DNA of 30,379 bases from a virus (taxonomy: Duplodnaviria; Heunggongvirae; Uroviricota; Caudoviricetes): the IMG/VR virus record IMGVR_UViG_2896595138_000001, positions 1 through 30,379 of that record; one strand, written 5' to 3'. Positions within the stretch are counted from its first letter, which is position 1. The number at the start of each line of letters is the position of its first letter. Shown piece after piece: positions 501 to 29,587 of the stretch. The translations under genes and the position numbers were made by a program. The notes under the pieces were generated by a model. It saw only the letters and a program-made list of their open reading frames with translations. It ran no database searches and had not been told where the DNA came from.

Positions 501-603
501 GCAAGGCAACTAAGCCTGCATTAATGCCAACTTTTAGCGCACGGCTCTCTCCCAAGAGCCATTTCCCTGGACCGAATACAGGAATCGTATTCGGTCTTTT
601 TTT
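501..603 (+). ncRNA. sdsR: SdsR (RyeB) small RNA
   Basis: Matches the recalled SdsR sequence (GCAUUAAUGCCAACUUUUAGCGCACGGCUCUCUCCCAAGAGCC...); 10 bp stem GACCGAATAC/GTATTCGGTC (570-596) plus T7 terminator; sigma-S-like -10 CTATTCTT just upstream. Confidence 0.65.
578..603. other. attL core (imperfect direct repeat with 29562..29587)
   Basis: ACAGGAATCGTATTCGGTCTTTTTTT here versus ACAGGAATCGTGTTCGGTCTCTTTTT at the right end; overlaps the sdsR terminator and lies next to the integrase gene. Confidence 0.6.
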
Positions 604-734
604 AATTGCATTTGAAATCAATTAGTTACAAATGCTTCCCCGAAATTCCCCGAAATTTACTCGAATTTCTGTATTCCGGTCTTTTTTGGTTATATCACAA
701 CCAAAATACATTTAACAATCCATTTACGTTAAAA

Positions 735-1772
735 TCAGAGCAGTAAGTACGTTTTTTCTCTCTCATCAAGATACATTTTTGTTGTCTTCTCCGATGTGTG
801 GCCAAGTAGACGCTGAGCAAATTCTTCTCCACATATTTCTTTGTACAATCGTCCAGCCAGGCTTCTGATTTCGTGAAAAGTTGGTGGGTTTTCACTGAAC
901 AGGATACCTGTTAATTTTCTGGCTGCGACAAATTTCTTTGTCAGGCCGTCCGGGTGAATGCTGCCGTCAGGGCTGTTTTTTCTAATCCCGGCACTGATTA
1001 GATAATCCCCCTACTTACCATGCGGCACTGTTTAACTACTGCACCAAGTCGTAAACCAGCGACAGGAAGGCTGAGTGACAGGGGGATAGCAATCATCATA
1101 AATATCACTGAACCGCATATTCGTTATGTCTTCGCGACGTTGTCCTGTTACAAGGGCTAAGTCCATAGCTAATGGGAACCATGCCGGAAGTTGATCTGCT
1201 GCCTCCCTGATGCAGTTGTATGTCTTTAGTTTCAGCCGTTCTCTTGTAACTACTATTTTCGGTGCTATTGTTGGCGTTACTGGATTTTGAGATATACGTC
1301 CTTCAACAATGGCTTCGCGGAACATATCAGATAACACAGAACGCATTGATCCTGCCATCGTGTTTTTCCCTCCTTCAATCCACAAATCAAGAAACTCGGC
1401 GATATGGCGAGTGGTTATTTCTGTCAGTAAAACCCCTCCTAATTTTTCTTTTATTGTCTCCAGTTGATTTACCCGAGTTTTATAAGTATTTCTGGACGCT
1501 TTTCTCCTTATAAGAATCGTTTTGTAACGTTCAATCCAGTCTGCCATAGTAAATGAGTCGACCCCTTTAAGCTTTTCAATTAGGGCAGCAGGAGAGTAGT
1601 TTTTGTATATATAATGATTTGCTTCAATTGCCTGCGCTACTGCATCTCTTCTTGAAATTTTACCTAGTGTAAATTCTTCTTTCGTCAGAGGGTTGCGCCA
1701 GTAATATGCTTTGTCTCTCCTTCGATATGTTAAGTTTCTAGGCAAATTGGGATCGTATTTTTTCCGCTGCAT
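735..1772 (-). pseudogene. int: Tyrosine integrase (lambda Int family), multiply frameshifted
   Basis: N-terminal 246 aa ORF ends prematurely; the C-terminal catalytic region (PPTFHEIRSLAGRLY...LLGHTSEKTTKMYLDERE) continues in two other frames down to a stop at 735-737. One shift sits at the C5 run 1007-1011. Confidence 0.8.
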
Positions 1773-2019
1773 GTTTTAACTTCTCCATTAACGGACTGTC
1801 TCTCCCTTGTCGCCCATTAGGCTGATGGTGTGTTATATCGGTATCAACCTTATTTGGGTTGATATAGAAAGCCTCCGGAACCACCCTGTAACTCCTCCCG
1901 TGTAGTTCAGGTGCAGGATAAATGTTTCCATTCCTTGCCCATCGTCTCAGCGTTGATATTGATGGTGGGGTATCCGGATATCTGAGTTTTCCCCACGTTT
2001 TGAGTGTCACAAGATTCAT
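1738..2019 (-). CDS. xis: Excisionase (lambda Xis-like)
   Basis: MNLVTLKTWGKLRYPDTPPSISTLRRWARNGNIYPAP aligns with lambda Xis (MYLTLQEWNARQRRPRSLETVRRWVRECRIFPPP); overlaps the int start as in lambda. Start chosen at the ATG with a GAGAGG RBS. Confidence 0.7.
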   Translation of the reverse strand: MNLVTLKTWGKLRYPDTPPSISTLRRWARNGNIYPAPELHGRSYRVVPEAFYINPNKVDTDITHHQPNGRQGRDSPLMEKLKHAAEKIRSQFA

Positions 2020-2125
2020 TGCCATACCTCTCACGATATGACCGCCAGTAAATATACAGAATACTGGCGGGTGTGGTTGATTTTTAATAATCAGCTATGA
2101 AGTTCTAATCTGGATATAATGAAAT

Positions 2126-2314
2126 TCACGAGGACTGAAGTTTCTCGCAATTAAAATTTATCAGTTTTACTTTCTGCTCTCTGGAAACGCCTGCTTCTTT
2201 TTCCCCTGAGAGCATTTTTTCGCATTCTGATTTCGTTAGTTTTGTCTTTGAGTATCTTGTCCAGCTGGCAGGAGAACCACCTTCCTTTTCAATAGTGGCT
2301 GTAATTTTATACAT
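2126..2314 (-). CDS. Hypothetical small phage protein (62 aa)
   Basis: ORF with GGAGGTG RBS 6 nt upstream of the ATG (MYKITATIEK...); early-region position downstream of xis. No family recognised. Confidence 0.35.
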   Translation of the reverse strand: MYKITATIEKEGGSPASWTRYSKTKLTKSECEKMLSGEKEAGVSREQKVKLINFNCEKLQSS

Positions 2315-2353
2315 GAACACCTCCATTAATATTTTCCCAAAATGCACTTGGTT

Positions 2354-27199: not shown

Positions 27200-27225
27200 A
27201 GGCCCGGGGCGGGCCTCTGTTTTTC
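27200..27225 (+). terminator. Hairpin plus T run between tfa and the convergent ipaH 3' end
   Basis: AGGCCC-GGGGC-GGGCCT followed by CTGTTTTT. Confidence 0.35.
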
Positions 27226-27260
27226 CGGAGTCAGTCCGGTCTGTGGTTTATGCGATGTGA

Positions 27261-28976
27261 TTATGAATGGTGCAGTTGTGAGCCGTTTTCAGGCAATCGC
27301 AGGGCCAGTACCTCGTCAGTCAGCTGACGGTAAATCTGCTGTTCAGTCTCACGCATCACCTGTGCACCGGCTTCCCTCTCCGCATCCGCATCACCGCTCA
27401 GACCTGATGCTTTCAGCCGGTCAGCCACCCTCTGAGGGTACTCATTCTCCAGCATCTCATATTTCTGCTCTTCTGCCTGCGCCCAGCGGTCAGCTTCCGT
27501 ACGCTTCAGTACAGCATGCCATGGTCCCCAGAGGGAGAACCAGTCCGTAAATTCATTCTCTTCACGGCTTCTGACCATGGCTTCGGCAGTGCGGAGGTCA
27601 TTTGCTGTCACTCCCGACACGCCATAGAAACGCATTTCCTTCACGGCAGTGGAGAGCTGAAGTTTCTCTGCGAGCATGGTCTGGAAGGCCAGGTAGACTT
27701 CTATCTCATCCACAAAATGGAGAGTTCTGACTTTATCCCGGGCAATGTCCTCCAGAATTTCGAGGCGGAACATTTCCCTGCCCAGGGAGAGCAGAGCGCC
27801 GGTATCATTATCGAAAAGGCCTTCTGATGCCTGATGGACCAGGAGGGTTTTCCGGAGATTGTTCCATGTGAGCGCGACACGGTCCTCACAGCTCTCAGTG
27901 GCATCAGCAGCAACAGCGAAAGACTGCTGTCGAAGCTCCGCAGAGGCACTGAGTTTTTCCAGCCATGCAGCGACCTGTTCACGGAATCCGGAGGTATTGC
28001 GTGCAGAGACGGTATCGGAAAGGCGGTCAAGGAACGCGGAAAAGGTGTTGGCGTGCTCTTCATGTTCAAAAGCATGCCATATCTGTGATACATCAGATTG
28101 TTTGTTTTCCGGGAACCATGCTGTCACGGCATCAGCCAGGGGGCGATGGAGTGTATTCTGTTGTCCGTCACTCATGGAGAAGTAAATCCGTGGGCCGTGG
28201 TAGTCCGGTTGGGCGGTTTGTTGCGACAGAGACTCCCTGATCCGTGAGGACAGAGGATTGTCTTCGAGGATGATAGTGCAGGTCGGATCAAGGCTAAGTA
28301 TATTTTCCGGAATGTGTGTGATGCGATTCTCGCGGCACCGGAAAAATATCTCGGTTTCCTCTGAGTGATGATTTCTTACAGGTACGGCTGGTAGGCTTTC
28401 CAGAAGATTAGTACTTACATCGAGCGCTTCCAGTGATTCAGGTAACTCAGGGAGAAATGTCAGCTGGTTATTTCTTACTGAGAGCACTTCCAGCGATGTA
28501 GGTAATTCAGGAAGCATGGTTAGCTGATTGTTATCTGCATTAATATATTCCAGCAATGCAGGCAATTCAGGAAGCATGGTTAGTTGGTTGTTATCTACAT
28601 CAAGATGTTTCAGAGATGCGGGTAATTCAGGAAGTGTTGACAGGTGATTGTCACAGGCGTCAAGGTATTCCAGCGATGCTGGCAATTCTGGTAATGATAT
28701 TAGGGCATTCTGAGTAATTTCCAGAACAGTGATTTGAGGTGGTAAGTTGTCAGGTAGCGAGGACAGATTTAAACGATTCAGTTGAAGCTCACTGAACTGA
28801 TTGATGAGACATTCTTTAAGTAGGGAGACCGCTTCATTCCGATTTTCACCGGGGAGCGCTTGTTTTTCCCATTTATCCCATGCTGAAAAGTAATCAGCAT
28901 ATGTACCGGAAATAGTGTTATAAAAAGAATTTTGGGACAATGAAAAGTTATTATTTATCGGTAACATGATGGACAT
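27261..28976 (-). CDS. ipaH: IpaH-family type III secreted E3 ubiquitin ligase (LRR domain + NEL domain)
   Basis: 571 aa; N-terminus [10 protein letters not shown]…, tandem 20-aa LRRs (LPELPxSLxxL…NNQLT), C-terminal NEL domain with catalytic Cys motif (…[19 protein letters not shown]…), near-identical to the recalled IpaH9.8 C-terminus. Alternative start at 28967. Confidence 0.9.
28389..28754 (-). repeat. Tandem ~60 bp coding repeats encoding the IpaH leucine-rich repeats
   Basis: Near-identical 60-nt units (…CAGGTAATTCAGGAAGCATGGTTAGCTG…) recur in phase inside the ipaH ORF. Confidence 0.8.
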
Positions 28977-29095
28977 TCAGTTAAAGCCGATGGACAAATG
29001 GCTTTGTTAAAAGAAATAAGTAGGAGTTTTTATGAAGTTCATTCCATGAAATGAACTTCAGAACTTTTTTATTATAAAAGGACAAACAAAATTGG

Positions 29096-29112
29096 CTGTA
29101 AAAAAACGATAC
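29096..29112 (-). promoter_or_regulatory. MxiE box (GTATCGTTTTTTTACAG) upstream of ipaH
   Basis: Exact match on the minus strand to the 17-bp MxiE/IpgC-dependent promoter element GTATCGTTTTTTTANAG, 120-136 nt upstream of the ipaH start codon. Confidence 0.7.
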
Positions 29113-29561
29113 TGTTTCAGTTAACTGTGAATAGCTTGCTTGCACCGTATTGTTCTTGTTTTTCGGTTAGTTAAACATCGTACTTCATATTTGAACGTTC
29201 TGCCGGAATGCATTATCAATAGAGGTAAAGTCGCAACCCCAAATCGTAAAGGAAACCGTAGCACGTCGTATGCAAGAACGTGCCACGGCTGGCTGATGGA
29301 TGTTCGATAGCGCGAGTTTGAATGAAAATCAGCCGGAGATGATTTTACATACATAATTGCTACGGAATTATTCAATACAGGAATTGCTTGCGTCTGCATG
29401 GATTGACCTGAAATATTCCCGAAAATTTCTCTAAAAAACTCGAAAAAAATGGTAACTGGTTGAATGTATTAATATGCAATGGTACGTGCCAGGGATTAAA
29501 AGATGAACGTAAATTTATTCAACGCATTAATTTTAAAGGGTTTTATTGTTTGTTGACGAAA

Positions 29562-29587
29562 ACAGGAATCGTGTTCGGTCTCTTTTT
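29562..29587. other. attR core (imperfect direct repeat with 578..603)
   Basis: ACAGGAATCGTGTTCGGTCTCTTTTT; carries the bacterial-type sdsR 3' end GGTCTCTTTTT; about 135 bp upstream of pphA. Confidence 0.6.

Follow-up and report, generated by a model that had tools for sequence, protein, structure and literature searches.

The 30,379-nucleotide stretch of DNA examined here (IMG/VR record IMGVR_UViG_2896595138_000001, hereafter the window) matches the 4,932,934-bp Shigella boydii chromosome CP026845.1 (assembly GCA_002950375.1) exactly, with window position 10164 corresponding to record position 133067 (100% match), and nearly all of the one-base frame changes clustered along it are almost certainly consensus errors of that deposited assembly. 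The locus is a decayed prophage remnant located between yebY and pphA. It contains, in order, an int fragment and xis, a copy of IS600, a lysis cassette, trkG, terminase genes, an IS110-family element, IS4, head and tail genes including the tail sheath gene, a second IS600, tail-fibre fragments, an intact ipaH, and pphA. A preliminary description of the window had listed about nine frame-changing sites and proposed homopolymer under-calling as their cause, with Shigella-style gene decay as the alternative. The runs named there (1007, 4948, 8915, 16076, 17113, 17310, and 22046) were found with the lengths and at the coordinates given (Table 1). The observation is correct, but the number of sites was set too low: 19 one-base deletions in G or C runs of the window were verified against same-lineage assemblies and another 3–4 are probable, for a total of 22–23. 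The deletions are private, run in one direction, occur only in G/C, depend on run length, and extend across the 41 kb sampled, and their repair restores known proteins.

Private deletions in G and C runs

Approximately 41 kb of CP026845.1, consisting of the window and its chromosomal flanks (40.9 kb pooled), was compared with near-identical independent assemblies, the same-lineage ones having been found via exact-protein look-ups. The set included GCA_031665755.1 (L018), a sister strain whose IS600, IS110-family, and IS4 insertion sites are those of the window, the short-read contigs L024 and L026 (the latter from Logan SRR8186642), and seven independent assemblies of the 7.1-kb segment from IS4 to IS600 (L008–L014). 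Four of the seven are from Logan (SRR3090005, ERR200279, ERR5888622, and SRR15416949) and three are from NCBI (GCA_014039295.1, GCA_013997175.1, and GCA_023191735.1), and their contigs stop at IS4 and IS600, as short reads would. Three assemblies belong to the same accession series or submission batch as the record (CP026824.1, L016; CP026877.1, L030; PSSP01000002.1, L023), and E. coli A17 (L001) was among the more distant relatives. A look-up of the 344-amino-acid tail-fibre fragment matched no genome but that of the window itself; because this fragment starts within IS600, at which short-read contigs are interrupted, it was of no use as a right-hand comparator, and the pphA fragment supplied one. 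Relative to E. coli, nearly all one-base indels are losses from a G or C run. With E. coli references alone (95–99% identity) this bias was visible, but artefact and lineage-specific mutation were inseparable.

At each of the 19 verified sites the window departs from its same-lineage references (L018, L024, L026, and L008–L014), and at 14 sites it is unlike every other assembly covering the position. Alignment with L018 over 18.7 kb gave 10 substitutions and 17 indels, every one of the 17 being a one-base G or C deletion in the window, and L026 differed from window positions 1–2733 by no substitution and two indels (C6 to C5 at 1007 and C5 to C4 at 2571). The seven assemblies of the 7.1-kb segment differ from the window by one to five substitutions; the window has no private substitution there, and all seven lack the five deletions found there at 17310 (C4 versus C5), 18796, 19234, and 20095 (G3 versus G4), and 22046 (G5 versus G6). 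The deletion at 22046 splits the 445-amino-acid sheath protein (assigned by a match to phrog_205, E = 3.5e-53) into pieces of 321 and 124 amino acids. This 321-residue product, the 337-residue middle fragment of the IS4 transposase, and a 126-residue fragment each occur on one contig only, that of the genome itself, and intact neighbours of 342 and 314 amino acids occur on at least eight contigs labelled Shigella boydii. Similarly, the 95-residue Rz/Rz1 product of the short run at 8915 was found in this genome only, the 154-residue forms being common. Further records of the series or batch, CP026824.1, CP026877.1, and PSSP01000002.1, bear private one-base G/C-run deletions of their own, at other sites in the first two; those of CP026824.1 lie, for example, opposite window positions 3873, 4488, 8000, 8120, 10493, 10709, and 26305, and in CP026877.1 yebT is split into products of 553 and 324 amino acids.

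The pooled 40.9 kb of the record contains 28 deletions, 0 insertions (sign test, p = 7e-9), and 11 substitutions, an indel-to-substitution ratio of 28:11. The share of G/C runs that were shortened climbs with their true length, from 0.4% at three bases to 6% at four, 48% at five, and 62% at six, whereas none of the 1,357 A/T runs of three or more bases was altered, including the 58 of six or more and the runs of seven or more. When only runs of at least four bases are counted, 25 of 163 G/C runs were hit versus 0 of 458 A/T runs (Fisher p = 7e-16). Substitution divergence in the compared sequence is ~0.03%, and the shortening of half of all G5/C5 runs at that divergence is no mutational pattern. 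The genuine slippage events of the lineage lie in A/T runs; the assembly-private events lie in G/C runs only.

The density of deletions, ~0.68 per kb in the sampled sequence, is alike in core and mobile DNA, with 12 deletions in 22.5 kb of flanking core and 18 in ~22 kb of the window. Just outside the window, one flank holds six deletions and one substitution in 11.7 kb and the other six deletions and one substitution in 10.8 kb, all of these deletions falling in G/C runs of two to six bases. As a result, copD, ptrB, rsmF, yebS, and yebT (the last in four pieces) are broken in the record outside the window (L025, 11785–16901; L028, 11474–16705) and intact in short-read assemblies of the lineage. 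The split of rsmF into 92 and 327 amino acids is also seen in some short-read assemblies, so that part of this split may be real.

Restoration of the missing bases returned known full-length proteins for the lysozyme, the small terminase, and the DUF4376 protein. With one G added at 8559, the lysozyme gene encodes a 165-residue protein that has exact matches on 449 contigs; the 187-residue form as it stands in the window was found on three contigs, all of them NCBI genome assemblies and none a Logan short-read-run assembly. One G added at 10921 lengthens the small terminase from 355 to 363 amino acids, a product present exactly on 103 contigs (NCBI, Logan, and ENA). Two C bases added at 26829 and 26851 yield a 207-residue DUF4376 open reading frame (ORF) with exact matches on four Shigella boydii contigs, the 149-residue product of the window being private to this genome. 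The sheath gene and other genes are intact in short-read contigs without any repair.

IS4 offers a further comparison, as the preliminary description had suggested, and other IS4 copies and orthologous prophages indeed have the longer runs. The element was recognized from its terminal inverted repeats, a perfect 12-bp target duplication (GAGCATTTGGTG, at 15718–15729 and 17154–17165), and a Pfam DDE_Tnp_1 match on a transposase fragment. Its identity to intact copies is 99.2–99.4%, the differences being two missing C bases and six to seven substitutions. The length of 1424 bp rather than 1426 bp had been noted before, and both missing bases do fall in C runs of the transposase gene (C5 to C4 and C4 to C3). 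The same insertion in the sister strain L018 encodes an intact 448-residue transposase.

Two further observations concern individual runs. The 132-residue N-terminal product of the IS4 transposase (15796–16194), which ends through the C5-to-C4 frameshift, recurs in identical form in several Shigella assemblies, S. flexneri K-304 and Shi06HN006 among them (17 contigs, every one from NCBI and none from a Logan short-read-run assembly); the same C5 run may have been miscalled more than once in other assemblies prone to homopolymer error. The run at 7848–7853, which lies upstream of the holin gene, is G6 in the window and in L018, G7 in L024, and G5 in L016 and L023, and is either a further under-call common to L018 or a truly variable tract.

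Table 1. Shortened G/C runs and other features of the window, with positions in window coordinates and comparison assemblies given by their L numbers
Feature	Position	Strand	State in the window	Assessment and comparison
int, C-terminal part	1007-1011		C5, true C6	artefact; C6 in L026, L003
C run	2571-2574		C4, true C5	artefact; C5 in L026, L018, L003, L004
G run	5460-5463		G4, true G5	artefact; longer in L018, L019; deletion common to L016 only
C run	5477-5479		C3, true C4	artefact; longer in L018, L019
C run	7423-7425		C3, true C4	artefact; C4 in 9/9 other covering assemblies
C run	7595-7598		C4, true C5	artefact; C5 in L018, L024, and five others; C4 only in L016, L023
Lysozyme gene end	8559-8562	+	G4, true G5	artefact; G5 in L018, L024
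Rz/Rz1 (lysis protein)	8915-8918	+	C4, true C5	artefact; C5 in L018, L024
trkG	10203-10206	+	G4, true G5	artefact atop real pseudogene; G5 in eight others including L018, L024
G run	10849-10851	+	G3, true G4	artefact; G4 in 10/10 other assemblies
Small terminase gene start	10921-10925	+	G5, true G6	artefact; G6 in 10/10 others
C run	14883-14887		C5, true C6	artefact; C6 in L015, L018
IS4 transposase	16076-16079	+	C4, true C5	artefact; C5 in L005, L006, L018, L020, L021, L022
IS4 transposase	17113-17115	+	C3, true C4	artefact; C4 in L004, L005, L006, L018, L020, L021, L022
Head-region gene (179-residue product, phrog_6268)	17310-17313	+	C4, true C5	artefact; C5 in seven short-read assemblies, L015, L018, L021, L022
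G run	18796-18798	+	G3, true G4	artefact; G4 in 12/12 other assemblies
G run	19234-19236	+	G3, true G4	artefact; G4 in 12/12 other assemblies
G run	20095-20097	+	G3, true G4	artefact, 146 to 126 residues; G4 in 12/12 others
Tail sheath gene	22046-22050	+	G5, true G6	artefact; G6 in 11/11 others
DUF4376 tail-fibre-assembly-like gene	26829-26831, 26851-26853	+	C3 each, true C4	probable artefacts; C4 in L029, L030, L031
Intergenic GC hairpin	27206-27209		G4, G5 elsewhere	probable artefact; G5 in L019, L023, L029, L031
int N-terminal fragment, 246 residues	1032-1772	-	ended by 38-bp deletion near 1096	real decay
IS600 copy 1	2707-3971	+	no indels; 99.4% identical to annotated IS600	real
A8 tract	4948-4955	+	no indel vs L018, L016	real sequence, no lesion
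trkG	9313-9318	+	T6 (T7 in intact gene)	real lineage-level frameshift
IS110-family transposase gene, 398 residues	13546-14742	-	Pfam DEDD_Tnp_IS110, Transposase_20	real insertion; same place in L015, L018
IS4	15730-17153	+	1424 bp	insertion real, two internal frameshifts artefactual
Gene between tail tube and tape measure (22896-23579)	23275-23283	+	T9 (T8 in E. coli A17)	real lineage-level change
IS600 copy 2	24243-25508	+	truncates tape-measure-like gene; short-read contigs end here	real
pphA	30034-30035	+	extra A, split 109 + 120 residues	real pseudogene

Genuine lesions of the locus

Beneath the artefacts the locus is truly decayed, with real insertion sequence (IS) insertions, deletions, and a few frameshifts. 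Sharing among independent assemblies from related strains distinguishes the two kinds of lesion: the G/C-run sites are not shared in this way, whereas the extra A in pphA, the T6 run in trkG, the T9 run at 23275, the 38-bp deletion in int, and the IS insertions are. The earlier proposal of homopolymer under-calling accordingly holds for the sites in int (1007), IS4 (16076 and 17113), Rz (8915), the head gene (17310), and the sheath gene (22046), and probably for the two tfa C runs. Shigella-style decay, the alternative offered alongside it, is very unlikely for the G/C-run sites and does apply to the locus through the two IS600 copies, IS4, the IS110-family element, the int deletion, and the T7-to-T6 change in trkG.

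Two of the lesions originally suspected as artefacts were reassigned. The frameshift in pphA, an extra A seen relative to L020, is real, as the 109-residue fragment is present on at least 24 contigs, four of which are Logan short-read-run assemblies; one of these, L032, shows no indel against window positions 29238–30379. The A8 tract is not a lesion, since a 152-residue ORF (4929–5387) spans it without interruption and is unchanged on 54 contigs, including Logan short-read assemblies, and a frameshift at this tract was ruled out on the continuity and wide occurrence of that ORF. Upstream of pphA, two TACA copies are present at 29346–29353 versus one in several relatives, with L032 also having two, so that the copy number is a real repeat-number polymorphism.

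The 38-bp deletion that ends the int N-terminal fragment was seen relative to L003 and L004 and is common to L026, and the exact 246-residue product occurs on 11–12 contigs including Logan ones. In trkG, the T6 run is common to the short-read contig L024 and to L018, L021, and L022, and T7 is found where trkG is intact (485 amino acids). The T9 run at 23275 is present in all seven short-read assemblies. In the T8 form of E. coli A17 the codons read ATT TTT TTT, which corresponds to a U UUU UUU slippery heptamer, and the T9 form seen in the S. boydii lineage encodes a 227-residue product that matches phrog_11810 (residues 1–140) and phrog_14324 (residues 131–227) end to end. With these features the site resembles a programmed −1 frameshift site of the tail-chaperone type that a genuine +1 T has fixed in its long form.

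Between the two IS600 copies there is one substitution and no indel. To the left of the IS110-family element (13520–13546), 2,607 bp are missing in the window that in L018 (11539–14145) contain the portal gene and two downstream genes. In L015, in L018, and in the short-read contig L024 this segment directly adjoins the same IS110-family element. Its absence from the window reflects either a deletion beside the IS element that is specific to this strain or an assembly error. The right end of the prophage remnant holds an intact gene for an E3 ligase effector of the ipaH type (27261–28976, minus strand; 571 amino acids with LRR_TTSS and NEL domains), which has no frameshift amid the surrounding damage.

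Origin of the deletions

CP026845.1 is most likely a PacBio-only assembly that received no short-read polishing. In such an assembly, the consensus caller would merge adjacent identical G or C signals and lose one base, with a probability that climbs with run length. A/T runs would be called correctly, and false frameshifts would arise genome-wide, in prophage genes, IS4, and housekeeping genes alike. The closed Shigella genomes that Kim et al. sequenced with PacBio and published in 2018 have been reported as unpolished, with numerous homopolymer indels that inflated core-genome multilocus sequence typing (cgMLST) allele distances (PMC8795385), and CP026832, of the same accession series, has been attributed to that study (PMC10132075). 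The Quiver consensus algorithm has been described as weak at G homopolymers, in long runs of ~9 bases (PMC4853030).

Several points weigh against consensus error as the explanation of every site. The deletions at 5460, 7595, 8559, 8915, 10203, and 27206 recur in one or two further assemblies of the series; this sharing fits recurrent same-batch errors at runs of five, although an ancestral prophage variant is possible. At 27206, G4 is also found in L016 and no indel was called against L030, and this site, together with 26829 and 26851, is without a same-lineage short-read comparison. The comparators are close relatives (0–10 substitutions per 7–19 kb) that may be different strains, and the evidence at every site comes from comparison of assemblies rather than from reads of this strain. 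The repaired, full-length IS4 transposase of 448 amino acids had no exact match in the protein collection, so the evidence for IS4 consists of the orthologous L018 copy and six other IS4 copies. Finally, we infer that CP026845.1 is part of the Kim et al. PacBio dataset from accession adjacency. No mention of CP026845 or GCA_002950375 was found in the searchable literature, CP026845.1 was not among the accessions in the supplements of PMC8795385 and PMC8767346, and a literature search with neighbouring accessions returned only an unrelated efflux-pump paper.

If the one-base deletions were real mutations instead, they would reflect Shigella-style neutral decay or a mismatch-repair-deficient (mutator) ancestry in which slippage shortened homopolymers. 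Real slippage mutations also favour homopolymers, and real decay is present at this very locus, where the four IS insertions, the int deletion, the T7-to-T6 change in trkG, and the extra A in pphA are found in independent assemblies too. Neither L018 nor the same-lineage short-read assemblies, however, have any of the checkable G/C-run deletions. No substitution in the 7.1-kb segment is private to the window. About half of the G5/C5 runs and 62% of the G6/C6 runs would have been shortened at a substitution divergence of only ~0.03%, with 0 insertions, 0 of 1,357 A/T runs changed, and the true slippage of the lineage located in A/T runs. Deletions are equally dense in housekeeping genes outside the prophage, and other assemblies of the same series have private deletion sets. 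A mutator origin was ruled out by the lack of A/T-run changes, of insertions, and of private substitutions in the 7.1-kb segment, and real mutation in general is highly improbable as the source of these deletions. Equally little probability attaches to the narrower proposal that a minority of them (the candidates being 7595, 8559, 8915, and 10203, each found in two other assemblies as well) are real and represent recurrent, parallel contraction of G/C tracts in separate Shigella prophages, a form of hypermutable-tract decay.

Consensus error could also have been introduced by a platform other than PacBio, since 454, Ion Torrent, Nanopore, and PacBio all miscall homopolymers. Flow-based platforms and Nanopore miscall A/T runs too, and flow-based platforms both over- and under-call, whereas in the record none of the 58 A/T runs of six or more bases is wrong and 28 of 28 errors are deletions. 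In addition, a single closed contig of 4.93 Mb in a very IS-rich genome argues for long reads, and the neighbouring CP026832 comes, by published attribution, from a PacBio study with genomes reportedly rich in homopolymer indels; another platform is very unlikely. The inverse error, in which the window is correct and the comparators over-call G/C runs, has a negligible probability, as more than 12 comparators, produced in different laboratories with different pipelines (Logan, NCBI surveillance drafts, and complete E. coli genomes), agree with one another and the longer runs give intact ORFs matching hundreds of contigs. Consensus error in an unpolished long-read assembly is the reading that we favour.

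Significance and comparison with known systems

As G/C bases were dropped by the assembly, the gene decay that these sites suggest is for the most part artefact. The general problem has already been reported, and the finding is a data-quality issue rather than a biological feature; its biological significance is low and its practical significance real. At 0.68 deletions per kb, CP026845.1 as a whole would contain roughly 3,000 false frameshifts, and sister records of the series contain similar errors. Because of these false frameshifts, pseudogene counts, calls of IS 'inactivation', cgMLST alleles, and protein catalogues derived from such records are inflated, and public protein collections already contain truncated 'proteins' taken from them. 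Such artefacts are easily taken for biology in a lineage famed for gene decay. For these records, frameshifts at G/C runs of four or more bases should be distrusted and those at A/T runs trusted.

The IS4 copy is like canonical IS4 (1426 bp, 12-bp target duplication) in its full-length identity, terminal repeats, and target duplication, and differs from it in being two bases short, both of them in C runs and both present in the sister-strain orthologue. With regard to pseudogene formation as known in Shigella, by IS insertion, deletion, and slippage frameshifts, the same locus has true cases that are common to independent assemblies; the G/C-run deletions, in contrast, are unshared, and their direction, base preference, and length dependence are unlike real mutation at 0.03% divergence. 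A further likeness is to PacBio-only bacterial assemblies of the Quiver/HGAP era, specifically the closed genomes of historical Shigella strains released in 2018, in which one-base homopolymer errors likewise produce false frameshifts genome-wide. Published remarks on that set contain no site-level description, whereas the errors described here are deletions only, are restricted to G/C, and affect ~50–60% of runs of five to six bases. Compared with the ~9-base runs of PMC4853030, short runs of three to four bases are hit here as well.

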